From Escherichia coli (GTDB lineage: Bacteria; Pseudomonadota; Gammaproteobacteria; Enterobacterales; Enterobacteriaceae): a stretch of 64,000 nt of DNA. Below the pieces are notes generated by a model that did no database searches, was not told the origin of the DNA, and saw only the letters and a program-made list of their open reading frames with translations. Below, piece by piece: positions 7,407 through 45,109 of the stretch. Both the position numbers and the translations under genes were made by a program. Position 1 is the first letter of the stretch; every line of letters starts with the position of its first letter. The stretch is from assembly GCF_013122565.1 (NCBI RefSeq), contig NZ_CP053258.1. One strand, 5' to 3'.

Positions 7407-8924
7407 ATGTCTGAACAAGAAACACGGGGAGCCAATGAGGCTATTGATTTTAACGATGAACTGAGAAATCGCCGCGAAAAACTGGCGGCACTACGTCAGC
7501 AAGGTGTGGCGTTTCCCAATGATTTTCGCCGCGACCATACCTCTGACCAGTTGCACGAAGAGTTTGATGCGAAGGATAACCAGGAACTGGAATCCTTAAA
7601 CATTGAAGTCTCGGTTGCTGGCCGAATGATGACCCGTCGTATCATGGGGAAAGCCTCCTTTGTAACGTTGCAGGATGTCGGTGGCCGTATTCAACTGTAC
7701 GTCGCACGAGATAGCCTGCCAGAAGGTGTTTATAACGATCAGTTTAAAAAATGGGATCTGGGTGACATTATCGGTGCCCGCGGTACGCTGTTTAAGACGC
7801 AAACGGGTGAGCTTTCCATTCACTGTACTGAGCTGCGCCTGCTGACTAAAGCACTACGTCCTTTACCAGATAAATTCCATGGTCTGCAGGATCAGGAAGT
7901 CCGTTATCGTCAACGTTATCTGGACCTCATCGCTAACGATAAATCCCGTCAAACGTTTGTTGTCCGTTCAAAAATTCTGGCCGCTATCCGCCAGTTCATG
8001 GTCGCGCGCGGCTTTATGGAAGTAGAAACCCCGATGATGCAGGTAATTCCAGGTGGGGCATCTGCTCGCCCGTTTATTACCCATCATAACGCTCTGGATT
8101 TAGATATGTATCTGCGTATCGCGCCGGAGCTGTATCTGAAACGTCTGGTTGTAGGCGGTTTTGAACGGGTATTCGAAATCAACCGTAACTTCCGTAATGA
8201 AGGTATTTCTGTTCGCCATAATCCTGAGTTCACAATGATGGAACTCTACATGGCGTATGCGGATTACCACGATTTGATTGAACTGACAGAGTCACTGTTC
8301 CGCACCCTGGCACAAGAGGTTCTGGGTACCACTAAAGTCACTTATGGCGAGCATGTGTTTGATTTCGGCAAACCGTTTGAAAAACTCACCATGCGCGAAG
8401 CAATCAAAAAATATCGTCCAGAAACCGATATGGCCGACCTGGATAATTTTGATGCTGCTAAAGCATTAGCTGAATCTATCGGAATTACGGTAGAGAAAAG
8501 CTGGGGGCTGGGACGTATTGTCACGGAGATCTTTGATGAAGTGGCAGAAGCACATCTGATTCAGCCAACCTTTATTACGGAATATCCGGCAGAAGTGTCA
8601 CCGCTGGCGCGCCGTAATGATGTTAACCCAGAAATCACCGACCGTTTTGAATTCTTCATCGGTGGTCGTGAAATCGGTAATGGTTTTAGCGAATTAAACG
8701 ACGCAGAAGATCAGGCTGAACGTTTCCAGGAACAGGTTAACGCTAAAGCTGCAGGTGACGACGAAGCCATGTTCTATGACGAAGATTACGTGACTGCGCT
8801 GGAATATGGTCTGCCGCCAACCGCTGGCCTGGGTATTGGCATCGACCGAATGATTATGCTGTTTACTAACAGCCATACTATTCGCGACGTTATTCTCTTC
8901 CCGGCGATGCGCCCACAGAAATAA
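7407..8924 (+). CDS. lysU: Lysyl-tRNA synthetase, inducible isoform
   Basis: ORF 7380..8924; start at MSEQETRG gives 505 aa; class II aaRS motifs and N-terminal OB anticodon-binding domain; position next to the cad locus identifies it as lysU rather than lysS. Confidence 0.9.
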
Positions 8925-8935
8925 ATTTCACTTTA

Positions 8936-8969
8936 ATGAACGAAGCAGTCAGGCGACTGCTTCGTTCAT
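8936..8969. terminator. Inverted repeat between the convergent lysU and ghoT genes, possible bidirectional terminator
   Basis: 15 bp perfect stem (atgaacgaagcagtc / gactgcttcgttcat) with a 4 nt loop; no strong T-tract on the + strand. Confidence 0.4.
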
Positions 8970-9042
8970 CGTTCCGCAAATCCAGTTTTGAGGAGAGACG
9001 CTTCGTTTCACGATAACCAGCGGGTCCACTCAACTACAGCTC

Positions 9043-9216
9043 CTAAAAGAGAGAAAAAAGTAATGCCACGGGCAGACTCATTGGCCAGGTTATTCCGACC
9101 AGGAATGCACTAAGTAAACGAATATGTGTTTTCTCATGTGAGATAAACCAGATAATGACAAAGGATATGTTCACACCAATCACATAAAAAATTAATATTT
9201 TAGAGAATAGCGCCAT
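9043..9216 (-). CDS. ghoT: GhoT, small membrane toxin of the type V toxin-antitoxin pair
   Basis: Not in the ORF track (57 aa, below cutoff); translated by hand on the minus strand: MALFSKILIFYV...LFSLF then stop; hydrophobic two-helix peptide directly downstream of ghoS on the same strand. Confidence 0.75.
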   Translation of the reverse strand: MALFSKILIFYVIGVNISFVIIWFISHEKTHIRLLSAFLVGITWPMSLPVALLFSLF

Positions 9217-9243
9217 TTTTTATGTTCTTCTTATCCTTCCTGG

Positions 9244-9540
9244 CTACTTGTAAAACTGACGGAAATAGTCATCAACTGTCATAATGTTGAGGTCAAAATC
9301 AATATCCGGTAAGTCTAAGCATTTAAGCCTGATTAAATCTTCGATTTCACTTGCGGCTAACGATGTCGTTATTGCGAAGGAATTTTCATTCAATTGTCGT
9401 GGTATCCCATATTCATCAGCCACGATAGAAGAGAAATTCATATCATACATCAATGATCTTAACCTTAAGAACACTGAGGAATAAGATGATGGATAATCAA
9501 AAGAAACAACATAAGTATTGAACTTGTTTTTACCTTCCAT
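9244..9540 (-). CDS. ghoS: GhoS, antitoxin endoribonuclease of the type V toxin-antitoxin pair
   Basis: 98 aa ORF (MEGKNKFNTYVVSFDYPSSY...); immediately upstream of ghoT on the same strand; matches YjdK/GhoS. Confidence 0.8.
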   Translation of the reverse strand: MEGKNKFNTYVVSFDYPSSYSSVFLRLRSLMYDMNFSSIVADEYGIPRQLNENSFAITTSLAASEIEDLIRLKCLDLPDIDFDLNIMTVDDYFRQFYK

Positions 9541-9766
9541 AATATGACTCCTATCAATATTAAACGCTCTGGGGACGCAAAACTTATTAACCCCGATTGA
9601 TGATTCTCATATAGGAGATATTCTTTTTTTTGCTCAGTAAAGGGGATGACTTGGGACAAAAAAACGCTCTCTCTGCCCATTCTTTGTGCATCCCCCTACC
9701 CTTCAGATGCTCTCCTGCATCACTCCGCGGAGAGCATGAAAAATATCGTGAATCTGTACTCTCCCA

Positions 9767-10039
9767 TCAACTGCGAATATCATCATACTCCCGCGTTTTA
9801 TCAAATTCGTGTTTCGCAAATGGACATAATGGGATAATTTTTCGTTTTTCCCGACGCATTTTTTCCACGACTTTCGCAACCAGCTGTTTACCAATCCCTT
9901 GCCCTTTCAGGCTTTCATCGACATCGGTATGTTCGATAATCGCTAAATTCTCTCCAGTCGGCACAAAGACAATTTCAGCGATTTGCTTGCCCTGTTCGTC
10001 ATTAATGTAAAATTTATTGTGGCCTTCGCGTATTTCCAT
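9767..10039 (-). CDS. yjdJ: Small GNAT-family acetyltransferase-like protein
   Basis: 90 aa ORF; position between ghoS and yjdI. Confidence 0.75.
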
Positions 10040-10281: not shown

Positions 10282-10461
10282 GACCTTCCCTCTCTCATCA
10301 GTATGGTTTTCACTATAAGCATAGCCCTGGAATCTTCATACAGCACTGGCAGTTTCCGTTGCCAGAGTCTCTTCCCCTATATAGCCAATCATTCTTACTC
10401 CCTTTGAATTACCCGCCTCATCAGAGATAATGCTTAAGAAATTTGTCACACAAGGAAGCTG

Positions 10462-24889: not shown

Positions 24890-26533
24890 ATGTTGAAGCG
24901 CCTACTAAAAAGACCCTCTTTGAATTTACTCGCCTGGCTATTGTTGGCCGCTTTTTATATCTCTATCTGCCTGAATATTGCCTTTTTTAAACAGGTGTTG
25001 CAGGCGCTGCCGCTGGATTCGCTGCATAACGTACTGGTTTTCTTGTCGATGCCGGTCGTCGCTTTCAGCGTGATTAATATTGTCCTGACACTAAGCTCTT
25101 TCTTATGGCTTAATCGACCGCTGGCCTGCCTGTTTATTCTGGTCGGCGCAGCTGCACAATATTTCATAATGACTTACGGCATCGTCATCGACCGCTCGAT
25201 GATTGCCAATATTATTGATACCACTCCGGCAGAAAGTTATGCGCTGATGACGCCGCAAATGTTATTAACGCTGGGATTCAGCGGCGTGCTTGCTGCGCTG
25301 ATTGCCTGCTGGATAAAAATCAAACCTGCCACCTCGCGTCTGCGCAGTGTTCTTTTCCGTGGAGCCAATATTCTGGTTTCTGTACTGCTGATTTTGCTGG
25401 TCGCCGCACTGTTTTATAAAGACTACGCCTCGTTGTTCCGCAATAACAAAGAGCTGGTGAAATCCTTAAGCCCCTCTAACAGCATTGTTGCCAGCTGGTC
25501 ATGGTACTCCCATCAGCGACTGGCAAATCTGCCGCTGGTGCGAATTGGTGAAGACGCGCACCGCAACCCGTTAATGCAGAACGAAAAACGTAAAAATTTG
25601 ACCATCCTGATTGTCGGCGAAACCTCGCGGGCGGAGAACTTCTCCCTCAACGGCTACCCGCGTGAAACTAACCCGCGGCTGGCGAAAGATAACGTGGTCT
25701 ATTTCCCTAATACCGCATCTTGCGGCACGGCAACGGCAGTTTCAGTACCGTGCATGTTCTCGGATATGCCGCGTGAGCATTACAAAGAAGAGCTGGCACA
25801 GCACCAGGAAGGCGTGCTGGATATCATTCAGCGAGCGGGCATCAACGTGCTGTGGAATGACAACGATGGCGGCTGTAAAGGTGCCTGCGACCGCGTGCCT
25901 CACCAGAACGTCACCGCGCTGAATCTGCCTGGTCAGTGCATCAACGGCGAATGCTATGACGAAGTGCTGTTCCACGGGCTGGAAGAGTACATCAATAACC
26001 TGCAGGGTGATGGCGTGATTGTCTTACACACCATCGGCAGCCACGGTCCGACCTATTACAACCGCTATCCGCCGCAGTTCAGGAAATTTACCCCAACCTG
26101 CGACACCAATGAGATCCAGACCTGTACCAAAGAGCAACTGGTGAACACTTACGACAACACGCTGGTTTACGTCGACTATATTGTTGATAAAGCGATTAAT
26201 CTGCTGAAAGAACATCAGGATAAATTTACCACCAGCCTGGTTTATCTTTCTGACCACGGTGAATCGTTAGGTGAAAATGGCATCTATCTGCACGGTCTGC
26301 CTTATGCCATCGCCCCGGATAGCCAAAAACAGGTGCCGATGCTGCTGTGGCTGTCGGAGGATTATCAAAAACGGTATCAGGTTGACCAGAACTGCCTGCA
26401 AAAACAGGCGCAAACGCAACACTATTCACAAGACAATTTATTCTCCACGCTATTGGGATTAACTGGCGTTGAGACGAAGTATTACCAGGCTGCGGATGAT
26501 ATTCTGCAAACTTGCAGGAGAGTGAGTGAATGA
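24890..26533 (+). CDS. eptA: Lipid A phosphoethanolamine transferase
   Basis: ORF 24845..26533 opens on TTG; start placed at the ATG ([11 protein letters not shown]) giving 547 aa; N-terminal TM bundle plus periplasmic sulfatase-like domain; stop overlaps basR. Confidence 0.85.
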
Positions 26534-27198
26534 AAATTCTGATTGTTGAAGACGATACGCTGTTATTGCAGGGACTGATTCTGGCGGCGCAAACCGAAGG
26601 CTACGCGTGCGATGGCGTGACAACCGCGCGGATGGCGGAACAAAGCCTTGAGGCCGGTCATTACAGCCTGGTAGTACTGGATTTAGGGTTACCCGACGAA
26701 GATGGACTGCATTTTCTCGCCCGTATCCGGCAGAAAAAATACACCCTGCCGGTACTAATCCTCACCGCTCGCGATACGCTGACCGACAAAATCGCCGGAC
26801 TGGATGTCGGTGCCGACGACTATCTGGTGAAGCCTTTTGCGCTGGAAGAGTTACACGCCCGTATCCGCGCCCTGCTACGACGCCATAATAATCAGGGCGA
26901 AAGTGAGCTGATTGTTGGCAATCTGACGCTTAATATGGGTCGCCGTCAGGTATGGATGGGCGGTGAAGAGTTGATTCTGACGCCCAAAGAATATGCTCTG
27001 CTGTCACGGTTAATGCTCAAAGCAGGCAGTCCGGTGCATCGGGAAATTCTCTACAACGACATCTATAACTGGGACAATGAACCCTCGACCAACACCCTGG
27101 AAGTGCATATCCACAATCTGCGCGACAAAGTGGGCAAAGCCCGTATCCGCACCGTGCGCGGATTTGGCTATATGCTGGTCGCGAATGAGGAAAACTAA
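26530..27198 (+). CDS. basR: OmpR-family response regulator BasR/PmrA
   Basis: 222 aa; receiver plus winged-helix domains; 4 bp overlap with eptA. Confidence 0.9.
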
Positions 27199-33345: not shown

Positions 33346-33651
33346 AGAAAATTCTTCCTTAAAGCAAATTTTGTTACTTTTATTTAGCCAGATTGTTTTT
33401 GAGTTCTGTTTTCGGCTTTTATAATTACTGCAAGAAATAATTTTATATTTAGCGTATTGTTTTTTATTAGAATAAATAACGTCTTCCGATACGTTTAAAA
33501 CGTCAGAAAGATAAAAATATCACGTGAATTAAAAAAAGAACAAGTAGAGCATTAACCTTATCTTAAATAATAAATAGAGGCAAAAAGATTATTTTCTTTT
33601 TGCGTTTTCTTTCAAATGAAAACGATCGTCGTCTAAAATCAGCAGTACCCC

Positions 33652-33679
33652 CGACAAACTCAGGGATTTTGTGTATAAT
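33652..33679 (+). promoter_or_regulatory. Candidate sigma70 promoter for phnA with an extended -10
   Basis: tgtgTATAAT extended -10 at about 33670..33679, with a weak -35-like cgacaa 16 bp upstream; about 70 bp before the phnA ATG. Confidence 0.4.
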
Positions 33680-33746
33680 TGCGGCCTTTTTCGGCAATCT
33701 GCCGTTTTTTGGCGCTTTTGCCCTGCTGACTTTTGAGGAAATCCAC

Positions 33747-34082
33747 ATGTCATTACCACACTGCCCAAAATGCAACTCCGAATACACCTACGAAGATAAC
33801 GGCATGTACATCTGCCCGGAATGTGCCTACGAATGGAACGACGCAGAACCTGCACAGGAAAGCGACAAGCTGATCGTTAAAGATGCTAACGGCAATCTGC
33901 TGGCTGACGGCGACAGCGTTACCATCATTAAAGATCTGAAGGTGAAGGGTAGCTCTTCGATGCTGAAAATTGGCACCAAAGTGAAAAACATCCGCCTGGT
34001 TGAAGGCGACCATAACATCGATTGCAAAATCGACGGTTTTGGTCCGATGAAACTAAAATCTGAGTTTGTGAAAAAGAACTGA
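33747..34082 (+). CDS. phnA: PhnA-family zinc-ribbon protein
   Basis: ORF 33600..34082; start at [13 protein letters not shown] gives 111 aa; CPKC...CPEC zinc-ribbon. Confidence 0.8.
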
Positions 34083-34097
34083 TTGTATTGTGATCGG

Positions 34098-34279
<182 letters not shown>

Positions 34280-34347
34280 CCCTCCAATCTCAACTGTTCA
34301 AATTTCGAACTACACTTAACTGGCTTCTCTTAACTGAGGTCATCATC

Positions 34348-34782
34348 ATGCCGTTAAGTCCCTACCTCTCTTTTGCCGGTAACTGTTCCGACGCGATTGC
34401 CTATTATCAACGTACGTTGGGCGCGGAACTGCTCTATAAAATCAGCTTCGGCGAAATGCCAAAATCAGCGCAGGACAGCGCCGAGAACTGCCCTTCCGGA
34501 ATGCAATTTCCCGATACCGCCATCGCTCATGCCAACGTGCGCATTGCCGGAAGCGACATCATGATGAGCGATGCTATACCGTCAGGAAAAGCTAGCTACT
34601 CCGGCTTTACGCTGGTGCTCGATTCGCAACAGGTCGAAGAAGGAAAACGCTGGTTTGATAACCTTGCCGCTAACGGAAAAATCGAAATGGCCTGGCAGGA
34701 AACTTTCTGGGCGCATGGCTTCGGCAAAGTCACCGATAAATTTGGCGTACCGTGGATGATTAATGTCGTTAAACAACAATAA
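34348..34782 (+). CDS. phnB: PhnB-like glyoxalase/bleomycin-resistance fold protein
   Basis: ORF 34249..34782 runs through the BIME; start placed at MPLSPYLSF (GAGG ribosome-binding site upstream), about 144 aa. Confidence 0.75.
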   Translation: MPLSPYLSFAGNCSDAIAYYQRTLGAELLYKISFGEMPKSAQDSAENCPSGMQFPDTAIAHANVRIAGSDIMMSDAIPSGKASYSGFTLVLDSQQVEEGKRWFDNLAANGKIEMAWQETFWAHGFGKVTDKFGVPWMINVVKQQ

Positions 34783-34832
34783 TAGCTACCTGCTGCGCCC
34801 ACTGGCGTTAATTCCCAAAAAGGAGAAATACC

Positions 34833-35267
34833 ATGCCTGCTTGTGAGCTTCGACCGGCCACGCAGTACGACACCGACGCGGTTTACGCACTGATTTGTGA
34901 GCTAAAACAGGCGGAGTTTGACCACCACGCGTTTCGCGTGGGCTTTAACGCCAACCTGCGCGACCCAAACATGCGCTACCATCTGGCGCTGCTGGATGGC
35001 GAAGTTGTCGGCATGATCGGCCTGCATTTGCAGTTTCATCTGCATCATGTCAACTGGATCGGCGAAATTCAGGAACTGGTGGTGATGCCGCAGGCACGCG
35101 GTTTGAACGTTGGTAGCAAGTTGCTGGCGTGGGCGGAAGAGGAAGCCCGTCAGGCCGGGGCCGAAATGACCGAGCTTTCTACCAACGTGAAGCGCCACGA
35201 CGCGCACCGTTTTTATCTGCGCGAAGGCTATGAGCAGAGCCATTTCCGTTTCACTAAGGCGCTGTAA
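34833..35267 (+). CDS. phnO: GNAT-family N-acetyltransferase, PhnO-like
   Basis: 144 aa; acetyl-CoA binding motif (Q/R-x-x-G-x-G/A pattern: [11 protein letters not shown]); recognised as PhnO-like from sequence and from its position after phnB and before yjdP. Confidence 0.55.
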
Positions 35268-35279
35268 GATGAGCCTACC

Positions 35280-35609
35280 TCATCGCCCATACTCATCTTC
35301 CATTCTCCGCTCTTCATCTTCTAGCTGCCGACGCTCCTGATCAAGCTGGCGCTGGCGATCGTCCAGTTGCCTGCGGCGATCTTCAAACTGGCGGCGGCGA
35401 TCGTCATATTGTCTGCGACGATCGTCGCTCACTTCACGCTGCCAGCTGTCGTCGCGCGAATCTTCATAGTCTCGCCCACGGTCAGGGTTATAAGCGTCGT
35501 TAATCGCCTGCTGAATATTGCCAATGGTGTCGTCGATAATATCGGCCTGGGCCGGAACGGTGGACAGCGTGAGCAGGGTGAAAAGAAAGAGCGTGGAGTG
35601 GTGTTTCAT
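35280..35609 (-). CDS. yjdP: Small secreted low-complexity protein YjdP
   Basis: 109 aa; N-terminal signal peptide, then an Arg/Asp/Gln/Glu-rich repetitive tail. Confidence 0.7.
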   Translation of the reverse strand: MKHHSTLFLFTLLTLSTVPAQADIIDDTIGNIQQAINDAYNPDRGRDYEDSRDDSWQREVSDDRRRQYDDRRRQFEDRRRQLDDRQRQLDQERRQLEDEERRMEDEYGR

Positions 35610-35677: not shown

Positions 35678-37939
35678 TCAATTCTCTTGCCCCAGAACCT
35701 GCGCCAGCTGCGCGCGGGTAAAAGGTTTGCGCAACAGCGCTACGTCTGGCAGCGCGGGGTTATGGCTGGGGCGTAAATCCTGGCCGCTGATGAGTAGCAG
35801 CGTCAGATGCGGGTAAAGTTCGCGGGCCGCATTGACCACTTCTGCGCCGCTCATGCCGCCTGGGAGCATTAAATCGCTGATAAAAATATCGATTTCCGCT
35901 GATGCCGCCAGCAGGTCCAGCGCCTGTTCGCCGCTGCTCGCTTCCAGCGTCAAATAGCCCAGCAGGTGTAACTGCTCGCAGATGGTCTGGCGCACCGCGG
36001 CTTCATCTTCCAGCACGAGCACCAGTTTATCGCCGCTGACGGCTGTCTGTTCTACCGCCGCTGGCGATAGGTTTTTCGCCGCCGTCAGCGCGCGGGGAAG
36101 CTGTAATCTGACCGTTGTCCCCTGCCCCGGCGCGCTTTCAATTTCTACACGCCCACCGGACTGGCGCACAAAACCATAGACCATCGACAAGCCCAGCCCG
36201 CTGCCACTCCCCGTCTGTTTGGTGGTAAAGAACGGCTCAAAGACCTGGCTTTTCACCGCCTGCGACATACCGCTGCCATGATCGATGACCTCCAGCGCCA
36301 CCATGTCCTGACGCTGCCCACTGCTGCGGGTAACGCGCTGATTCCAGGTACGAATTTTGATAATTCCCGTCAGCCCTTCCATCGCATCGCGGGCGTTCAT
36401 CACCAGATTGATGATGGCATTTTCCAGCTGGCTGACATCAATCCACGCGGGCCATGCCGGAGACTGCGCTTCAATCTCAATCGTCAGCGTCGCCGGTAAG
36501 GAGTGGCGCATTAATTCGCTTAACTCTTCCAGCAGTGTTTTTAGCTCAACGGCTTGCGGATGTAAGGACTGCTTGCGGGAAAACGCCAGTAGTCGCTGGG
36601 TCAGTAGCGCGCCACGTTCGGCAGCTTGCTGCGCCCGCTGTATTCGCGGCGCGTCGGGTGAGTCCGTGTTCACCAGTTCCAGGCTGCCAATAATTACCGC
36701 CAACAGATTATTAAAATCATGGGCCAGCCCACCCGTCAATTGCCCAACCGCTTTCAGTTTCTGGCTGTGTAATAGCGCCTCTTCCAGCCCCTGCCTCTCG
36801 GTTTGGGCAATCTCCATCTGCGTGGTTTTCTCTTTCAACAGCCTTGACGTTCGTTCGAGTGACGCGGTATTGCGGGCAAAAACGTTAAAGGCGCGCGCCA
36901 GTTCACCCAACTCATCGCGCCGCTGTAACGCCGGAAAAGTGACGTCCGCTTCGCCGTGCGCCAGGCGGCTCATAGCGCGGGAAATCGCCGTCAGGTTAGA
37001 GCCGAGATTGCGATAGATATACCAACCTGCAAATGCGGTGATCACCACCGCTAACAGAGCGAAAATCATGATCACCCTCTCGCCGGAGCGCAAATCCTGG
37101 TAACTTTGCGCCACCCGCTGACCGGAGAGCATCGCCACCTGTTCGGCGTAACGGTTGATGTCGCCATTAAGGATCGCCACCAGCGCTTTGATGTGAAACA
37201 TATACCAGCTGATTGCCAGATCGCTTTGCTCCAGAGCGGCAGAAAGCGGCGCGAGTTTACGCAGTTCATCATTGAAATCATTGAGTAGCGTATTAACCAA
37301 TGGCGTATCGCTGTGGGTCGGCAACGCAGACATTACCCCGACCAGTTGATGAATAATCGCCTGCGGCGCGGGGGTGGCAATAGCGGCAACAATCAGTCGG
37401 TTCATCTCGTTAAGCAAAATATCATCTTGCGCATTAGTGACTTTTTGCAGATGCCGCAGATAACTTAAGTTTTGATACAGCGAACTTAACAGCGCGTTGC
37501 GCTCCAGATGTCGCCTTTGCCCGCGCTCCAACATTCCGCCGACGCTGGTTTGCAGTTCGTTGCTACGCGTGATGATGCGCGCCACCAGCCCGGCCTCCTG
37601 CTGCGCTAACGGCGCGTTCGCCAGTTGTGCAAGCGAGCTTTTTAATGCCCGCTGTGTCTCCTGCAATCGCTCGGCTTCGCCTTTATATTCCAGCGCTCCC
37701 ACCACTTGTGACAATCGCACCGCCGCCGTCGCCACATTTGCCGTGTCGCGCGCCAGATTCAGGCTGCCGGTCATATCATCCACCGTTTGCTGCTGTACCA
37801 GCTCCTGCATCTGGCTGGCATGACGAAAGCCCATTACCGCCACGCCGCTGACCATCAGCGTCACCGCTACCACCAGCAAATTCAAAAGCAGCAATCGCCC
37901 GCGCGCGCTGGCAAAAAAGTGACGTCCGGGGTGCGCCAT
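35678..37939 (-). CDS. Hybrid sensor histidine kinase with periplasmic domain and C-terminal receiver
   Basis: ORF 35678..38035; start placed at the in-frame ATG (MAHPGRHFF) with a GGAG ribosome-binding site, about 753 aa; TM1, ~280 aa periplasmic domain, TM2, HAMP, H-box (GGLAHDFNNLL), ATPase domain, receiver domain (LVLVLEDE...ISDLMLPGGMSG); no HPt domain seen. Confidence 0.8.
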   Translation of the reverse strand: MAHPGRHFFASARGRLLLLNLLVVAVTLMVSGVAVMGFRHASQMQELVQQQTVDDMTGSLNLARDTANVATAAVRLSQVVGALEYKGEAERLQETQRALKSSLAQLANAPLAQQEAGLVARIITRSNELQTSVGGMLERGQRRHLERNALLSSLYQNLSYLRHLQKVTNAQDDILLNEMNRLIVAAIATPAPQAIIHQLVGVMSALPTHSDTPLVNTLLNDFNDELRKLAPLSAALEQSDLAISWYMFHIKALVAILNGDINRYAEQVAMLSGQRVAQSYQDLRSGERVIMIFALLAVVITAFAGWYIYRNLGSNLTAISRAMSRLAHGEADVTFPALQRRDELGELARAFNVFARNTASLERTSRLLKEKTTQMEIAQTERQGLEEALLHSQKLKAVGQLTGGLAHDFNNLLAVIIGSLELVNTDSPDAPRIQRAQQAAERGALLTQRLLAFSRKQSLHPQAVELKTLLEELSELMRHSLPATLTIEIEAQSPAWPAWIDVSQLENAIINLVMNARDAMEGLTGIIKIRTWNQRVTRSSGQRQDMVALEVIDHGSGMSQAVKSQVFEPFFTTKQTGSGSGLGLSMVYGFVRQSGGRVEIESAPGQGTTVRLQLPRALTAAKNLSPAAVEQTAVSGDKLVLVLEDEAAVRQTICEQLHLLGYLTLEASSGEQALDLLAASAEIDIFISDLMLPGGMSGAEVVNAARELYPHLTLLLISGQDLRPSHNPALPDVALLRKPFTRAQLAQVLGQEN

Positions 37940-38052
37940 ATCACGCTCCGTGAAGAAAAATCGCAATATGACAAATATGAACGGCTTCTGACATTTTGCA
38001 TTTACTTTCCTGTGATGGAGTGCTGATATCGACAACCTCGCAGGAGTCCACC

Positions 38053-39573
38053 ATGAACAGCACGCCGGTTCTGGAGATGCGCAATATTGCCAAAGCTTTT
38101 GGCAAATTTTATGCGCTCAAAGGGGTGGATTTGACGGTCTACCCAGGAGAGATCCACGCCCTGATGGGGGAAAACGGCGCCGGAAAAAGCACGCTGATGA
38201 AGGTGCTGGCGGGGGCGTATACCGCCACCAGCGGCGAGATCCTGATAGACGGCAAGCCCTTTCACATTCGCACGCCGAAAGATGCCTTAAGCGCCGGTAT
38301 TACCCTGATTTATCAGGAGATGCAGCTGGCACCCAATTTGACGGTGGCAGAAAATATTTTTCTCGGCAGCGAGCTTTCCCACGGCGGGCTGGTGCAGCGT
38401 AAAGAGATGCTGGTGCAGGCGCAAAAAGTGATCGACCGCCTCGGCGCGCAGTTTAACGCCAGCGATAAGGTCATGACGCTGACCATTGCCGAGCAACAAC
38501 AGGTCGAAATCGCCCGGGCGCTGCATCGCAACAGCCGCATTCTGGTGATGGACGAACCCACCGCAGCCCTCTCCTCGCGTGAAACTCACCGCCTGTTTGA
38601 ATTAATCATGCGGCTGCGCGATGAAGGGATGGCGATTATCTACATTAGCCACCGCATGGCGGAAGTGTATGAGCTTTCCGATCGCGTCAGCGTGCTGCGC
38701 GACGGGCAATACGTTGGCAGCCTGACCCGCGACAACCTCAACGCCGGGGAGCTGGTGCGGATGATGGTCGGCAGGCCACTGAGCGATCTGTTCAATAAAG
38801 AGCGCGATATCCCGCTCGGTAAAGCCCGCCTGAACGTTCACCACCTGACCGACGGCGGCAAAGTCCAGCCGAGTAGCCTGCTGGTGCGTTCCGGCGAAAT
38901 TGTTGGCCTCGCCGGACTGGTGGGTGCCGGACGTTCCGAACTGGCGCAGTTGATCTTCGGCGTGCGCAAAGCGACAGGCGGAATGATTGAAGTCGATGGC
39001 GAACCGGTGGTGATCCACTCCCCGCGCGAAGCCATCGATCTTGGCATTGGCTTTCTCACCGAAAACCGCAAAGAACAAGGCTTATTCCTTGAAATGGCGG
39101 CAGCCGAAAACATCACCATGGCAACCCTGGAGCGCGACGCCCGCTGGGGAATGCTCAATCGCAAAAAAGCGCAAACCATTTCCGATGACGCCATTAAGTT
39201 GCTCAACATTCGCGTGCCTCATGCCCAGGTGCGCGCGGGCGGGCTTTCCGGCGGCAATCAGCAAAAACTGTTGATCTCCCGCTGGGTGGCGATTGGCCCG
39301 CGCATTTTACTGCTCGATGAACCCACCCGCGGCGTGGACGTTGGCGCAAAAAGCGAGATCTACCGGATCATGAACGAGATGGCACGCAAGGGCGTGGCGA
39401 TCCTGATGATCTCCAGCGAACTGCCGGAGATAGTGGGAATGAGCGATCGCGTCTATGTGATGCGTGAAGGCAGCATTGCCGGTGAGTTAAACGGCAAAAA
39501 CATCACCCAGGAAAACATTATGACCTTAGCGACCGGAGTTAACGACGCCCATTCCCAGGCGGTGACCTCATGA
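38053..39573 (+). CDS. Sugar ABC transporter ATP-binding protein with two nucleotide-binding domains
   Basis: ORF 37996..39573; start at MNSTPVLEM (AGGAG ribosome-binding site), about 506 aa; two Walker A motifs (GENGAGKST and GLVGAGRSE) and two signature motifs (LSGGNQQK), as in the RbsA/AlsA/MglA family. Confidence 0.85.
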
Positions 39574-40544
39574 CGACCTCTGCAAAAACCTCTGCCAAAA
39601 AAATGCTGATGAGCGATCTGATGCAAACGGTCGGCATCTTGCCCATTTTGATTCTGATCGTGGCGGTATTTGGCTTTATCGCGCCAAACTTTTTTAACGA
39701 AAGCAACCTGCTAAATATTACCCGCCAGGCGTCGATCAACATTGTGCTGGCGGCGGGAATGACCTTCATCATTTTGACTGGCGGGATCGATCTTTCTGTA
39801 GGTTCAATTCTCGGCACCACGGCGGTGGCGGCGATGGTCGTCTCCCTTAGCCCTGAGTTCGCCATGCTGTCGATCCCGGCGGCGCTGATGCTCGGTCTGC
39901 TGCTGGGGCTGTTCAACGGCGCGCTGGTGGCCTTTGCCGGATTGCCGCCGTTTATCGTCACGCTTGGCACCTATACGGCGCTGCGCGGGGCGGCGTATCT
40001 GCTGGCGGACGGCACCACGGTTATCAACTCCAACATTAATTTCGAGTGGATAGGCAATAACTATCTCGGGCCGGTCCCGTGGCTGGTGGTGATTGCGCTG
40101 GCGGTGATCGTGGTGTGCTGGTTTATTCTGCGCCGCACCACGCTTGGTGTTCATATCTACGCCGTCGGCGGCAATATGCAGGCGGCGCGTCTTACCGGCA
40201 TTAAGGTCTGGCTGGTGCTGCTGTTTGTTTATGGCATGAGCGGCCTGCTTTCAGGGCTTGGCGGGATTATGAGCGCCTCGCGGCTGTACAGCGCCAACGG
40301 CAACTTAGGCATGGGTTACGAACTGGACGCCATTGCGGCGGTGATCCTCGGCGGCACCAGTTTTGTCGGCGGCATCGGCACCATCACCGGCACGCTGGTC
40401 GGGGCGCTAATTATCGCCACGCTCAACAATGGCATGACCTTAATGGGCGTCTCTTACTTCTGGCAACTGGTGATCAAAGGGGCGGTGATCATCATTGCGG
40501 TGCTGATCGACAAATACCGTACCCGACACCATCAAAGTGCATAA
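39570..40544 (+). CDS. Sugar ABC transporter permease
   Basis: 324 aa, about 10 TM segments; start overlaps the ATPase stop. Confidence 0.85.
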
Positions 40545-40562
40545 ACACATGAGGAATACAGC

Positions 40563-41504
40563 ATGAGATTGAAGCCCTTAGTGACCGCGCTCTGTGCAGG
40601 CGCGCTGCTGGCCGCAGCACCGTTCGCCCAAGCGAAAGAACTGAAATCGATAGGCGTAACGGTGGGCGATCTGGCGAACCCGTTCTTCGTGCAGATCACC
40701 AAAGGCGCGGAGCTGGAAGCACGCAAACTGGCAGGCGATAACGTCAAAGTGACGCTGGTTTCCAGCGGCTACGATCTGGGCCAGCAGGTGTCGCAGATAG
40801 ACAACTTTATCGCCGCTAACGTCGATATGATTATCCTCAACGCTGCCGATTCAAAAGGGATCGGCCCGGCGGTGAAACGGGCGAAAGATGCCGGGATCGT
40901 GGTCGTCGCGGTTGACGTGGCGGCAGAAGGTGCCGATGCCACTATCACTTCCGATAACACCCAGGCAGGCGAAATGGCCTGTAAATACATCACCGATCGC
41001 CTGAAAGGCAAAGGCAATGTGGTGATCATCAACGGCCCGCCGGTGTCCGCCGTGCAAAACCGCGTTGAAGGATGCCAGACTGAATTTAAACGCCATCCTG
41101 ACATCAAGGTACTCTCTGACAACCAGAACGCGAAAGGCAGTCGTGAAGGCGGGCTGGAGGTAATGACCGGACTGCTGGCGGCAAATCCGAAGATCGACGG
41201 TGTATTTGCGATTAACGATCCGACAGCGATCGGTGCCGATCTGGCAGCAAAACAGGCGCAACGTAACGAGTTCTTTATTGTCGGCGTAGACGGAAGCCCG
41301 GACGCCGAAGAGGCGCTAAAACGTGAGAACTCGTTGTTTGTCGCCACTCCAGCACAAGATCCCCAGGTGATGGCAGCAAAAGCGGTTGAGATCGGTTATG
41401 ACATTTTGCAGGGCAAACCCGCGCCGAAAGAGCCGGTGCTGATCCCGGTGACGATGATCGATAAAAACAACGTCGGCAATTACAAAGGCTGGACGGTGAA
41501 ATAA
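40563..41504 (+). CDS. Periplasmic sugar-binding protein (RbsB/AlsB-like)
   Basis: 313 aa; signal peptide (MRLKPLVTALCAGALLAAAPFAQA), type I periplasmic binding fold. Confidence 0.85.
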   Translation: MRLKPLVTALCAGALLAAAPFAQAKELKSIGVTVGDLANPFFVQITKGAELEARKLAGDNVKVTLVSSGYDLGQQVSQIDNFIAANVDMIILNAADSKGIGPAVKRAKDAGIVVVAVDVAAEGADATITSDNTQAGEMACKYITDRLKGKGNVVIINGPPVSAVQNRVEGCQTEFKRHPDIKVLSDNQNAKGSREGGLEVMTGLLAANPKIDGVFAINDPTAIGADLAAKQAQRNEFFIVGVDGSPDAEEALKRENSLFVATPAQDPQVMAAKAVEIGYDILQGKPAPKEPVLIPVTMIDKNNVGNYKGWTVK

Positions 41505-41558
41505 GCCCACACGCCGGGCGGCGCAGCTGCCCGGTCACCGCTAAGGAGAACGCTTTCG

Positions 41559-42242
41559 ATGAAACGCTCCGCTATAAACGACATTCTCGGCCATACACGG
41601 CAATTCTTTTCGCAACATGACGTACATCTGCCGCCCTTTGCCAGTTTCTCGCCTGCTCAATGGCAGCAGCTCGACACCGCCGCGTGGGAGGAGGTTTTTG
41701 ATCTCAAACTCGGCTGGGATGTTACCGCTTTTGGTGGCAACAACTTTGCAGCACAGGGGCTGACGCTGTTTACCCTACGTAACGGCTCAGCAAAAGGAAT
41801 GCCGTATGTGAAATGTTACGCCGAGAAGATCATGCATGTGCGCGATGCGCAGGTCACGCCAATGCATTTTCACTGGCGTAAGCGTGAGGACATTATCAAT
41901 CGCGGCGGCGGTAATTTAATTGTTGAACTGTGGAATACCGATAGTAACGAGCAAACGGCTGATAGTGACGTTACGGTGGTGATAGACGGCTGCCGCCAGA
42001 AACATACTGCAGGCACTCAGTTGCGCCTGTCTCCCGGCGAAAGTATCTGCCTGCCGCCCGGCCTGTATCACAGCTTTTGGGCGGAAACCGGTTTTGGCGA
42101 TGTACTGGTTGGCGAAGTCTCTTCTGTCAATGACGACGACCACGATAACCACTTTTTACAGCCACTGGACCGCTACAACCTGATTGACGAAGACGAACCT
42201 GCACAGTTGGTGTTGTGTAACGAATACCGCCAGTTCCGCTGA
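41559..42242 (+). CDS. Cupin-fold sugar isomerase, D-lyxose/D-mannose isomerase-like
   Basis: 227 aa; cupin metal-binding pattern (HxH...E...H: HFHWRKREDIINRGGG...LYHSF); operon context with transporter, kinase and aldolase. Confidence 0.65.
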   Translation: MKRSAINDILGHTRQFFSQHDVHLPPFASFSPAQWQQLDTAAWEEVFDLKLGWDVTAFGGNNFAAQGLTLFTLRNGSAKGMPYVKCYAEKIMHVRDAQVTPMHFHWRKREDIINRGGGNLIVELWNTDSNEQTADSDVTVVIDGCRQKHTAGTQLRLSPGESICLPPGLYHSFWAETGFGDVLVGEVSSVNDDDHDNHFLQPLDRYNLIDEDEPAQLVLCNEYRQFR

Positions 42243-42256
42243 ATAAGGAGAACGTT

Positions 42257-43117
42257 ATGTCATTGATTTCTCTCGCTGAAGGGCTGGCTCATGCCCGCGA
42301 ACATCGCTATGCGTTAGGTGCGTTTAATGTACTGGACTCGCACTTTTTACGCGCCTTGTTTGCTGCTGCCAGACAAGAACGTTCGCCCTTTATTATCAAC
42401 ATTGCCGAAGTACATTATAAATATATCTCGCTGGAATCCCTGGTCGAGACAGTGAAATTTGAAGCGGCGCGCCATGCCATTCCGGTGGTATTAAATCTCG
42501 ATCACGGGCTGCATTTTGAGTCGGTGGTGCAAGCGTTGCGGCTGGGATTCAGCTCGGTAATGTTTGATGGCTCCACGCTGGGGTATGAAGAAAATGTCCG
42601 CCAAACGCGGGAAGTGGTGAAAATGTGCCATGCCGTTGGCGTATCGGTAGAAGCTGAACTGGGCGCGGTGGGTGGCGACGAAGGCGGTGCGCTCTATGGT
42701 CATGCCGATGAATCCCTGTTTACCGATCCGCAACTGGCGCGTGATTTTGTCGACCGTACCGGCATTGACGCGCTGGCCGTGGCGATTGGCAATGCACACG
42801 GCAAATATCGCGGCGAACCGAAACTCGATTTCCTACGCCTCGACGCTATCCGCCAGCAGGCTGCTATCCCGCTGGTATTACACGGCGGCTCAGGGATTAG
42901 CGATGCCGATTTCCGCCGCGCCATCGAACGGGGTATCCACAAAATCAATTTCTACACTGGCATGTCGCAAGCGGCGCTGGCTGCCGTTGAGGCCCGAATG
43001 GCGCACCGTCAGCCGATGTATGATGAGTTTGCCGAGTTACTACTAGCAGTGGAAGCCGCCATCAGCGATACGGTTGCACAACAGATGCGTATTTTCGGCA
43101 GTGCGGGGCAGGCATGA
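42257..43117 (+). CDS. Class II ketose-bisphosphate aldolase family protein
   Basis: 286 aa; FBA class II / tagatose-bisphosphate aldolase family (LDHG, HGGSG motifs). Confidence 0.75.
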   Translation: MSLISLAEGLAHAREHRYALGAFNVLDSHFLRALFAAARQERSPFIINIAEVHYKYISLESLVETVKFEAARHAIPVVLNLDHGLHFESVVQALRLGFSSVMFDGSTLGYEENVRQTREVVKMCHAVGVSVEAELGAVGGDEGGALYGHADESLFTDPQLARDFVDRTGIDALAVAIGNAHGKYRGEPKLDFLRLDAIRQQAAIPLVLHGGSGISDADFRRAIERGIHKINFYTGMSQAALAAVEARMAHRQPMYDEFAELLLAVEAAISDTVAQQMRIFGSAGQA

Positions 43118-44115
43118 TGGAACGTAGAGGGATTATCGCCGCAGGCAATATGTTGGTTGACCACGTCCATCAGATTATCCAGTGGCCAGAGCGCGGCTGG
43201 CTGGCGGAGATTACCCACAGCGAACGCTCCACCGGCGGCGCGCCGCTTAATGTCCTGCTGACACTGGCGAAAATGCGCACCGGGTTGCCGTTACAGGCGG
43301 TTGGGCTAATCGGTCAGGACAGCGACGGCGATTACATCATGGCGATGCTTGAGCAATATCACGTCAATCGTCAGCATGTGCAGCGCACTACCTTTGCCCC
43401 GACGTCGATGTCACAGGTGATGACCGACCCAAGCGGGCAGCGGACGTTTTTCCATTCGCCGGGTGCAAACAGACTTTTGGATCTTCCGGCGTTCGATCAG
43501 CTCGATAACACCATGAAGATTTTCCATCTCGGCTATTTACTGTTGCTCGACAGCCTGGATATGCCGGACGATGTTTACGGCACCCGTAGCGCACGACTGC
43601 TGGCGCAAATGCGTGATACTGGCTTTGAAACCTCACTCGACCTGGTCTCCCGCAAGGGCGATCCGCGTTATCAGCCGCTGGTGCTGCCCGCGTTGCGCCA
43701 TCTGGATTATCTGGTAATTAACGAACTGGAGGCCGGGGAGTTTAGTGGGCTGGAAATTCGGTTACCCAACGGCGAACCGCATATCGCGCATATTGCTGCC
43801 GCCGCGCGTGAACTGTTAGATGCGGGCGTGCGCCAGCGTGTGGTGATCCACTGCCCGGAAGGGGCCTGGGGAGAAACCCCGGAACAGGGCGGCGTGTGGA
43901 TCCCTTCGCAAAAGTTAGAACAACGGGAAATTATCGGCAGCGTCGGTGCGGGCGATGCATTTTGTGCCGGATTTTTATATGGCTGCCATGAGTGCTGGGC
44001 GCTAACTGAGAGCATAAAACTGGCACATGCCTGCGCGCGGGCAAGCCTGTTATGCGCTAATGCCATCGACGGGGCAAAAACGCTGGAAGAGTTGCAAACA
44101 GAAATGTCAGATTAA
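43114..44115 (+). CDS. PfkB-family carbohydrate kinase
   Basis: 333 aa; C-terminal GAGDAF motif of the ribokinase/PfkB family; start overlaps the aldolase stop. Confidence 0.75.
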   Translation: MMERRGIIAAGNMLVDHVHQIIQWPERGWLAEITHSERSTGGAPLNVLLTLAKMRTGLPLQAVGLIGQDSDGDYIMAMLEQYHVNRQHVQRTTFAPTSMSQVMTDPSGQRTFFHSPGANRLLDLPAFDQLDNTMKIFHLGYLLLLDSLDMPDDVYGTRSARLLAQMRDTGFETSLDLVSRKGDPRYQPLVLPALRHLDYLVINELEAGEFSGLEIRLPNGEPHIAHIAAAARELLDAGVRQRVVIHCPEGAWGETPEQGGVWIPSQKLEQREIIGSVGAGDAFCAGFLYGCHECWALTESIKLAHACARASLLCANAIDGAKTLEELQTEMSD

Positions 44116-44819
44116 TGCACGTCGGCAGCGAAGACATACCCCAGGCCGCGCAGAGTTTTAATCAACATCGGCTGATGCGGATTGAGTTCGATTTTGCGTC
44201 GTAAGCGCATGATTAAGACGTCGATGGTGCGATCAAACACTTCCACGCTATCGCTATGAGTGAACGCCAGCAGCTGCTCGCGGCTTAATACCCGACGGGC
44301 ATTTTGTGCCAGGGCCAGTAACAAGCCATATTCGCCCTGAGTCAGCTCGACATGTTGTTGTAGCGGACTATGCAGTTGACAGCGAATGGTATCGAGATAC
44401 CAGCCATTGAATGACAGCCCGGCGTTTTTCTCCTCGTTAACCGCCAGCGCGCCAACCCGTCGCAACACCGCTTTCAGTCGTGCGACCACCACCCGCGGGG
44501 TGAACGGTTTGCAGATGTAATCATCCGCGCCCATTTCCAGCCCGACCACCACATCAGACTCACTGCCCATGCCGGTCAACATCACCACCGGCAATGTCGG
44601 ACGCAGTTTCTGGATTTGCTGCAATATCCTCAGGCCGTTGGTATCGGGTAGCATCATATCCAGCACCACCAGCGCAATGTCAGGATCGCCCTCAATACGC
44701 AATATGGCCTCCTGTCCGGTATGGCAGACTGAAACCGTAAAGACATGTTCACTTAACACGTCCTGCAGCAGTGCGCAGATAGCCGTGTCATCATCCACCA
44801 CCAGCACGACGGGTTTCAT
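44112..44819 (-). CDS. OmpR-family response regulator
   Basis: ORF 44112..44837; start placed at MKPVVLVVDDD (GGAG ribosome-binding site), 235 aa; receiver domain plus winged-helix output (TLRGLGYVF); 3' end overlaps the convergent kinase gene by 4 bp. Confidence 0.8.
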   Translation of the reverse strand: MKPVVLVVDDDTAICALLQDVLSEHVFTVSVCHTGQEAILRIEGDPDIALVVLDMMLPDTNGLRILQQIQKLRPTLPVVMLTGMGSESDVVVGLEMGADDYICKPFTPRVVVARLKAVLRRVGALAVNEEKNAGLSFNGWYLDTIRCQLHSPLQQHVELTQGEYGLLLALAQNARRVLSREQLLAFTHSDSVEVFDRTIDVLIMRLRRKIELNPHQPMLIKTLRGLGYVFAADVH

Positions 44820-45109
44820 GGTTACACTCCGCATCATTCATCTGATTAATCATTGTGCGTACTTCTTGTCGAAGTGAAAGCTGAAAGTAATATAAATAAT
44901 AAAAATATAAGTCAGGTCACATTATTGATGATAGTAATAAATATGCCGTACTTTTCCCTCTTCAGCACAAATGCCTAATAAAATGGCGCGTTCCGCTCAC
45001 ACTTCCGCTTATTAAAGTCGCAAATTCCCAATTATGATAACCCCAGCTTTAAATGACGTATTTTGCATGGATTACATATTTACGACATAAATGATAAATG
45101 GAGATTTAT

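Follow-up and report, generated by a model that had tools for sequence, protein, structure and literature searches.

The closest described relative of the locus studied here is a two-component system on genomic island OI-167 of Escherichia coli O157:H7, which controls type III secretion and colonization in that organism (PMC9860305, PMC10128022). It carries two sets of names: Liu et al. (PNAS 2022, PMC9860305) call it RbfS/RbfR and give riboflavin as its signal, and Yang et al. (mBio 2023, PMC10128022) call it LmvK/LmvR, name the operon lmuKAIZYX and give mannose and lyxose as signals. The two studies disagree on the signal (riboflavin or mannose), on the relevance of the kinase for expression of the locus of enterocyte effacement (LEE), and on the route by which phosphate reaches the regulator, and neither of them treats the fold of the sensor domain or a role of the periplasmic binding protein in sensing. 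Here, we analyzed a 64,000-nucleotide stretch of an E. coli genome (NCBI RefSeq assembly GCF_013122565.1, contig NZ_CP053258.1; the window), in which the region 35678-44837 is almost certainly this system, in identity as well as in regulatory output: LmvK/LmvR (or RbfS/RbfR) together with the lmuXYZ-lmuI-lmuA-lmuK operon for uptake and catabolism of D-lyxose and D-mannose under its control. The system as such is already published; what is new here is the linkage of the genes for the kinase, the ATP-binding cassette (ABC) transporter with its binding protein, and the regulator, observed in almost every related locus whose flanks are long enough, and a TorS-type fold of the sensor domain, predicted by structure modeling.

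The identity of the locus follows from gene order, sequence, and position. Its eight genes stand in the same order as in OI-167, that is, a hybrid sensor histidine kinase gene (35678..37939, minus strand; 753 amino acids [aa] by RefSeq start and homologue alignment), then ATPase, permease, binding protein, isomerase, aldolase, and kinase genes, and finally an OmpR/PhoB-family response regulator gene (lmvR/rbfR; 44112..44837, minus strand; NCBIfam, RefSeq, and the literature) that is convergent with the operon. Open reading frames (ORFs), protein families, and the RefSeq annotation of a matching genome all give this arrangement, and it bears out an earlier reading of the window made from its letters (the sequence-only reading), which had described an ABC operon with a periplasmic binding protein encoded divergently from a kinase and an OmpR-type regulator at the other end of the island, and which had not recognized the system as a published one. 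The regulator gene lies ~6.2 kb from the kinase start. Compared with complete E. coli genomes, O157:H7 loci included, the 10-kb region is 95-98% identical (maximum, 98.4%), and the kinase gene is found at full length and 93-98% identity in 410 of 5,426 such genomes, O157:H7 strains among them. The island is inserted between yjdP and yjcS, the same site as that of the O157:H7 locus. The window differs from that locus in being non-O157, with flanks that are 90-95% identical to most E. coli and match Escherichia sp. E1V33 best, and in a kinase that is three codons shorter, so that H407 and D689 here correspond to H410 and D692 in O157.

The regulatory output can be read from the operator. In O157:H7, mannose and lyxose induce the lmu operon via both LmvK and LmvR; the system is needed for growth on lyxose and, when overexpressed, on mannose too; its function depends on oxygen; and in DNase I footprints LmvR protects 22 nucleotides that contain ATATGA-N3-ATATGA, at −41 to −62 of the lmuX promoter (PMC10128022). 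The corresponding direct repeat here, ATATGA-CAA-ATATGA (37966..37980, plus strand; assigned from the sequence and the published footprint), is the one exact match to this motif in the whole window and lies 73 bp upstream of the lmuX ATG, within the 113-bp divergent intergenic region. Citrobacter, Kosakonia, Raoultella, Buttiauxella, and other genera keep it in the equivalent intergenic region. We found no sigma-70 consensus promoter in the kinase/lmuX intergenic region, which fits an activator-dependent lmuX promoter. Going by the O157:H7 orthologue, mannose or lyxose would act through the kinase, and phosphorylated LmvR would bind the repeat at 37966-37980 and activate the operon from lmuX onward. 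The regulator sites published for the ler promoter differ between the two papers, being TCTCACATAATTTATATCATT in one (PMC9860305) and ATTTTA-N3-ATTAGA in the other (PMC10128022); a perfect direct repeat is present only in the lmuX operator, unlike these reported ler sites.

Liu et al. stated that rbfSR occurs only in enterohemorrhagic E. coli (EHEC) and O55:H7 (PMC9860305). Our scan of 100,044 species genomes, with a query alignment of 9 closer sequences, found the cluster in at least 145 species, among them members of Citrobacter, Enterobacter, Klebsiella, Raoultella, Kosakonia, Buttiauxella, and Cedecea, and the E. coli genomes that carry the kinase gene include isolates from pig, pigeon, horse, deer, frog, and river water. 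The number of species and the 410 E. coli genomes correct the view of an EHEC-specific acquisition for virulence, and the cluster appears to be a sugar locus widely distributed in enterobacteria, not an island peculiar to EHEC. To compare neighborhoods, we used 80 genome loci—all from Enterobacteriaceae, since the scan query was built from the 9 closer sequences—and 8 loci from metagenomes or metagenome-assembled genomes, with distant members added one at a time. Wherever the contig reaches, the kinase gene is divergent from the ATPase, permease, and binding-protein genes, and the regulator gene is present in nearly all loci with enough flank, none having been detected in the fetched stretch of a few (e.g., L008 and L017 from Citrobacter). 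In members whose sensor domain is only 22 to 27% identical, the regulator gene directly follows that of the binding protein. The conserved core of the locus is therefore the kinase, the ABC transporter with its binding protein, and the regulator. The catabolic genes vary, from none in Raoultella and Pantoea and the isomerase only in Cedecea to an FGGY kinase in one locus and an added ROK kinase in distant members, which makes the catabolic part modular and suggests differing downstream routes for lyxose and mannose. At the level of single loci, isomerase, aldolase, and kinase are all missing from L002, L047, L048, L051, L062, and L072; L082, L083, and L085 have the isomerase only; and the FGGY kinase, which is xylulokinase-like, is that of L087 (213-1658). 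One distant member, L004, carries a flavohemoglobin-type gene (Globin, FAD_binding_6, and NAD_binding_1; 8708-9862) between the kinase and the ABC operon; set beside the riboflavin response and oxygen need of the E. coli system, this may be a coincidence.

The kinase has exactly two hydrophobic segments by hydropathy (residues ~16-38 and 287-309), which leave a periplasmic sensor domain of ~248 aa (residues ~39-286; 37082..37825, minus strand); the sequence-only reading had been right about the two transmembrane (TM) helices and had overestimated the domain between them at ~280 aa. The HAMP linker that follows (residues 309-357; 36869..37015, minus strand; Pfam) runs into the helix of the dimerization and histidine phosphotransfer domain (DHp) without a PAS domain between them. 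Most family members are longer, ~870 aa, with a PAS_7 domain of ~100 residues between HAMP and DHp (seen in L091, L087, L004, and L090), which the window kinase lacks (36745-36870, residues ~357-399), the alignment showing a clean in-frame gap after residue 376. PAS_7 is also missing from the E. coli, Citrobacter, Enterobacter, and Leclercia versions and, independently, from P0143, a distant member of 728 aa.

The sensor domain belongs to a narrow family, with 86 representatives at an E value of ≤0.001 among 1.84 billion cluster representatives. Sequence and profile searches against PDB sequences returned only chance coiled-coil matches, and Pfam gave no match over residues 39-286, HBM (helical bimodular) and TorS-sensor families included, so the likeness described below is one of structure only. 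The AlphaFold2 (AF2) model, built on an alignment of 17 homologues that are 21 to 78% identical to the query, is confident (predicted local distance difference test [pLDDT] score of 86) and wholly helical, and the first and last helices are long and run on into the TM segments. In a Foldseek search with this model, the sensor domain of Vibrio parahaemolyticus TorS ranks first (TM-score of 0.71 on the target), the TorS chain of the TorS-TorT complex second, and PilJ and McpS next; LytS-N of the XylFII-LytS complex is also a strong structural match. On this model, the sensor domain is a stacked double four-helix bundle of the TorS/HBM type. A Venus flytrap (binding-protein-like) domain, as in BvgS or the hybrid systems of Bacteroides, is ruled out, as the domain is entirely helical. 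In the homologue alignment, the polar residues T66, R75, Q78, E84, Y85, R143, H144, and Q156 are invariant or nearly so across the family. The fold leaves the route of sensing undecided, because McpS, itself of the HBM type, binds its ligands directly.

The candidate partner of this domain is LmuZ (40563..41504, plus strand), a periplasmic RbsB-like sugar-binding protein with a signal peptide, encoded by the third gene of the ABC operon. It is the sole RbsB-like binding protein in the window, as the sequence-only reading had held; it is nearly identical to PDB entry 4RWE (E value of 3.7e-167, the match starting at residue 26); and its NCBIfam matches, RbsB-like with a weaker one to TorT, place it in the RbsB/TorT superfamily. 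Tentatively, we favor a model in which the sugar signal passes through LmuZ: loaded with mannose or lyxose, the protein would dock on the dimeric TorS-type bundle and shift the TM2 and HAMP helices, and it would also feed LmuXY. Built as it is on analogy, this docking seems to us a serious possibility somewhat short of probable, and the same grade applies to the whole chain from the sugar through kinase, fused receiver, and regulator to the operon. Docking is made plausible by the linkage of the kinase to the ABC transporter, its binding protein, and the regulator, which persists in nearly all loci with enough flank and in every distant member whose contig extends to the neighboring genes, as far out as 22% sensor identity and also where the catabolic genes are missing. 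It is also in line with the TorS-type fold of the sensor domain and its structural match to LytS-N, with the induction data, in which the inducers are the sugars predicted as substrates of the LmuXYZ transporter (PMC10128022), and with a review in which binding proteins stimulate both TorS and CtpL, a receptor of the HBM type, and the sugar-responsive kinases listed (VirA, LytS, GtrS, and ChiS) are all signaled to via a binding protein (PMC8050422). The docking site may be the family-invariant polar patch formed by R75, Q78, E84, Y85, R143, and H144.

A number of observations weigh against this model. We modeled LmuZ and the sensor domain in AF2 as a fusion, with 16 paired rows, each of them a mature binding protein connected through a (G4S)8 linker to the sensor domain of the same locus. 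Both parts folded (mean pLDDT of 81) and the linker was disordered, but no confident interface appeared, the predicted TM-score (pTM) of 0.49 being the value expected for two well-folded domains without confident mutual orientation; the test had low power, as it used a single chain in a 1:1 ratio (TorS-TorT is 2:2), a shallow alignment, and a nearly invariant binding protein, and was read from pTM and pLDDT only. Structure prediction, which the sequence-only reading had proposed as a check, thus yielded a confident TorS-type model for the periplasmic domain alone and no confident interface for the complex, so that the TorS/TorT analogy gained a structural basis in the sensor fold. In mice, deletion of lmuKAIZYX, which includes the binding-protein gene, causes no colonization defect, even in a manA background, and deletion of lmvK or lmvR does (PMC10128022). 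Since the operon is dispensable there, the kinase can signal in vivo in the absence of the binding protein, although what it reads in vivo may be something other than the sugar. LEE expression in mannose medium is affected by deletion of lmvR and unaffected by deletion of lmvK (PMC10128022), and riboflavin raises the autophosphorylation of the purified kinase with no binding protein present (PMC9860305); on our model, any riboflavin effect would be a separate input, independent of LmuZ. Nor did we find, here or in any related locus with enough flank, a dedicated binding protein free of a transporter, comparable to TorT, LuxP, or XylFII. Finally, synteny alone does not imply docking, because regulators usually adjoin their target operon.

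The evolutionary rates of the two proteins show no matched change, which is a further point against docking. Across Enterobacteriaceae, the mature binding protein is 93-98% identical (70 of 79 pairs) and the sensor domain 58-80%; in distant loci the figures are 76-84% versus 22-37%. Of the proteins of the cluster, those that change most slowly are the binding protein and the permease (76-98%), and the sensor domain changes fastest (22-80%), with regulator, isomerase, aldolase, and kinase in between. Because the permease is about equally conserved, the slow change of the binding protein can be accounted for by transport alone, and on balance we take the rate data to speak neither for nor against docking.

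Several of the same observations would be expected if the double four-helix bundle itself bound mannose or lyxose and/or riboflavin, as McpS binds organic acids, in which case LmuZ would serve transport only and the linkage would be the ordinary adjacency of a regulator and its target. We regard such direct sensing as possible but doubtful. McpS, which binds malate and succinate directly, is among the best structural matches; the invariant set T66, R75, Q78, E84, Y85, R143, H144, and Q156 could form a ligand pocket; and the response of the purified kinase to riboflavin (PMC9860305), the unlike outcomes of operon and kinase deletion in mice (PMC10128022), and the lack of an interface in the fusion model all point the same way. 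Ligand binding to the sensor domain is, however, demonstrated in neither of the two studies (PMC9860305, PMC10128022), and every sugar-responsive kinase in the table of the review works through a binding protein (PMC8050422). So does TorS, the closest kinase of this fold. To our knowledge, no four-helix-bundle or HBM sensor has been described that binds a neutral monosaccharide directly, which also counts against direct sensing.

The kinase might instead read transporter activity or an intracellular product such as a fructose or xylulose derivative, with a periplasmic domain that serves riboflavin or no input at all. This we consider improbable. The PAS_7 domain between HAMP and DHp in most family members suggests an intracellular input in the ancestral protein, and both the oxygen dependence of the system and the reduced growth on lyxose after deletion of lmuZYX, which is compatible with a need for import first, point the same way (PMC10128022). 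Yet the E. coli-type kinase has lost its PAS domain and O157:H7 still responds to mannose and lyxose, and a 248-aa periplasmic domain with invariant polar residues family-wide speaks for an input from the periplasm. In flux-sensing kinases, the periplasmic loops are typically minimal, which again counts against cytoplasmic sensing.

Returning to docking, a possible though doubtful extension is that LmuZ is bifunctional, feeding LmuXY and docking on LmvK, and that LmvK is a two-input sensor that receives a host-glycan sugar via LmuZ and riboflavin from the microbiota directly. If true, such a kinase would reconcile the two published signals. More generally, the predicted TorS fold and the persistent linkage turn the vague statement that LmvK senses mannose into a genetically testable question. 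If the binding protein is the sugar input, a known class would gain another member, of some relevance to the way in which EHEC reads its niche; if it is not, LmvK would be a rare example of direct binding of a neutral sugar or a flavin by a helical-bundle sensor.

Beyond the sensor, Pfam recognizes HAMP (residues 309-357), HisKA (399-458), HATPase_c (501-616), and Response_reg (640-748) in the kinase. The transmitter (residues 399-616; 36092..36745, minus strand) is of a CckA/VirA-like subtype by Pfam and NCBIfam, and the fused receiver (residues 640-748; 35696..36022, minus strand) has a complete phospho-acceptor site. A Pfam search of the kinase found no histidine-containing phosphotransfer (HPt) domain, and the protein ends 5 residues past the receiver, in keeping with its earlier description as a hybrid kinase with a fused receiver and no HPt. 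The phosphorylated histidine is H407, in an HDFNN box, and the acceptor aspartate of the receiver is D689; that of the regulator is D60 in the listed ORF, or D54 counted from the annotated start at M7. The AHDFNN box and, in the receiver, the acidic pair, D689, the Ser/Thr position, and the Lys-Pro are invariant across the family, even in members with 22% sensor identity, from which we infer that the fused receiver is a working phospho-acceptor under selection.

How such a kinase passes phosphate to a separate regulator, which the sequence-only reading had posed as an open mechanistic question, has largely been answered: RbfS transfers phosphate directly to RbfR in vitro, with the two purified proteins alone (PMC9860305), and VirA is a receiver-fused, HPt-less kinase for a separate OmpR-family regulator, its receiver recruiting VirG and controlling transfer (PMC4705274). 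In O157:H7, growth on lyxose depends on H410 and D54 (PMC10128022). The in vitro transfer and the VirA precedent favor direct transfer with the receiver as a modulator or sink, and we think direct His-to-Asp phosphotransfer from kinase to regulator likely. The kinase would autophosphorylate at H407 and hand the phosphate straight to the regulator aspartate, a step that draws on the in vitro literature and on the resemblance to a VirA/CckA-type transmitter and a VirG-like regulator. By analogy with VirA, the fused receiver may well act through D689 as an intramolecular modulator, whether as a phosphate sink or as a recruiting surface.

A point against direct transfer is that Yang et al. proposed an unknown Hpt (PMC10128022). 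In the multistep phosphorelay that they drew, phosphate would pass from H407 to D689, then to an unlinked HPt (for instance, that of ArcB, BarA, EvgS, TorS, or RcsD), and finally to LmvR. The fully conserved acceptor site, which makes it very probable that the receiver is phosphorylated, is consistent with this route, as is the CckA-like transmitter subtype seen in NCBIfam. In the CckA-ChpT-CtrA pathway, CckA uses a separate phosphotransferase. We nonetheless judge the relay unlikely for LmvK. None of the eight genes of the island has an HPt-like assignment (Pfam on the kinase, NCBIfam), related loci add no conserved extra gene, and the conserved set in more than 80 of them is the same eight genes. 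The system was also reported to function after its move into Citrobacter rodentium and other serotypes, transfer was seen with purified kinase and regulator alone (PMC9860305), and VirA works with the same architecture and no HPt (PMC4705274). Direct transfer thus remains our preferred route.

The remaining genes of the operon agree with uptake and catabolism of lyxose and mannose. On the plus strand, lmuX (38053..39573) encodes a sugar ABC transporter ATPase of the CUT2 type with two ABC domains (NCBIfam AraG/XylG/RbsA-like, RefSeq annotation), and lmuY (39570..40544) the permease (NCBIfam RbsC-like). Downstream of lmuZ on the same strand follow lmuI (41559..42242), for a D-lyxose/D-mannose isomerase (NCBIfam NF051472, 439 bits against a cut-off of 350); lmuA (42257..43117), for a ketose 1,6-bisphosphate aldolase (NF005284, 573 bits, above cut-off); and lmuK (43114..44115), for a PfkB-family carbohydrate kinase (PfkB-type NCBIfam matches), whose product was reported to have fructokinase activity (PMC10128022).

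Two gene calls at the locus were set aside. The listed kinase ORF (35678..38035, minus strand) begins at a TTG at 38035 and spans 785 aa. The start annotated by RefSeq for this gene in E. coli strain C9 and the homologue alignment both support the ATG at 37939 and thus 753 aa; the longer ORF is an over-extension that would overlap the LmvR operator, the divergent promoter, and the lmuX start region (37940-38035). A 219-aa plus-strand ORF within the kinase gene (36357-37016), whose translation is rich in Ser, Ala, and Arg, is an antisense artifact.

Outside the island, the window holds other two-component genes, namely, a kinase gene with a regulator-like ORF after it (10438-12806) and a gene for an OmpR-family regulator (26530-27195), which have their own neighbors and are unlinked to it. 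To the left of the island, at 33600-35609, yjdM (phnA), yjdN (phnB), phnO, and yjdP adjoin each other. The C-P lyase genes phnC-phnN and phnP appear to be absent from this interval, leaving phnO alone. In the map of E. coli K-12, phnC-phnN and phnP separate yjdM/yjdN, phnO, and yjdP, and the als/rpiB genes lie between yjdP and yjcS; the island takes the place of these als/rpiB genes.

Among known systems, TorS/TorT/TorR resembles the locus in its sensor, two stacked four-helix bundles being present in TorS and predicted for LmvK, although sequence and profile searches detect no similarity between the two sensor domains. TorS/TorT has been classed as HBM-like (PMC8050422). The differences lie elsewhere: TorT is dedicated to sensing and has no transporter, whereas LmuZ is encoded within an ABC operon; TorS works by a four-step relay and carries an HPt, whereas LmvK has no HPt by Pfam; and the LmvK transmitter is CckA/VirA-like and not TorS-like. 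Against NCBIfam TorS models, the kinase scores 135 bits (cut-off, 676) and 76 bits (cut-off, 982), which leaves it outside that family. The HBM receptors (McpS, PilJ type) differ in that McpS is a chemoreceptor that binds organic acids directly.

For the cytoplasmic half, the closer likeness is to VirA/VirG, a hybrid kinase with a C-terminal receiver, no HPt, and a separate OmpR-family regulator, and the LmvK and LmvR proteins align with VirA-like and VirG models. The best NCBIfam matches of transmitter and receiver are PRK13557, CckA, and VirA-like, all under their cut-offs, the VirA-like match (217 bits; cut-off, 647) pairing kinase residues 376-750 with positions 428-809 of an 828-position model; the regulator matches OmpR (192 bits) and VirG (183 bits; cut-off, 344) best. 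As these scores fall below the curated cut-offs, the resemblance to VirA/VirG is one of type and not of membership. A second parallel is ChvE, the binding protein of a monosaccharide ABC transporter, which brings VirA its sugar signal, the same dual role that we propose for LmuZ. VirA differs from LmvK in a periplasmic domain listed as dCache-like (PMC8050422), where that of LmvK is helical, in a cytoplasmic linker that senses phenolics, and in gene order, chvE not being adjacent to virA.

Linkage of the binding-protein gene to transporter and signaling genes is the feature shared with GtrS/GltR and GltB of Pseudomonas aeruginosa glucose uptake, with BctE/BctC, and with ChiS/CBP. In the GtrS/GltB class, the two-component system controls the operon of that same transporter, as gene order and the published regulation indicate for the lmu locus; GltB, BctC, and CBP are required to stimulate their kinases, and GtrS controls the glucose ABC operon (PMC8050422). 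The protein families and sensor folds of GtrS, BctE, and ChiS are unlike those of LmvK. Binding proteins with roles in both transport and signaling are a known class that includes ChvE, GltB, BctC, and CBP (PMC8050422), and given these precedents a sensing role of LmuZ would add a member to that class rather than a new mechanism. If that role is real, LmvK would be the first kinase of the TorS fold to be served by the binding protein of an ABC transporter.

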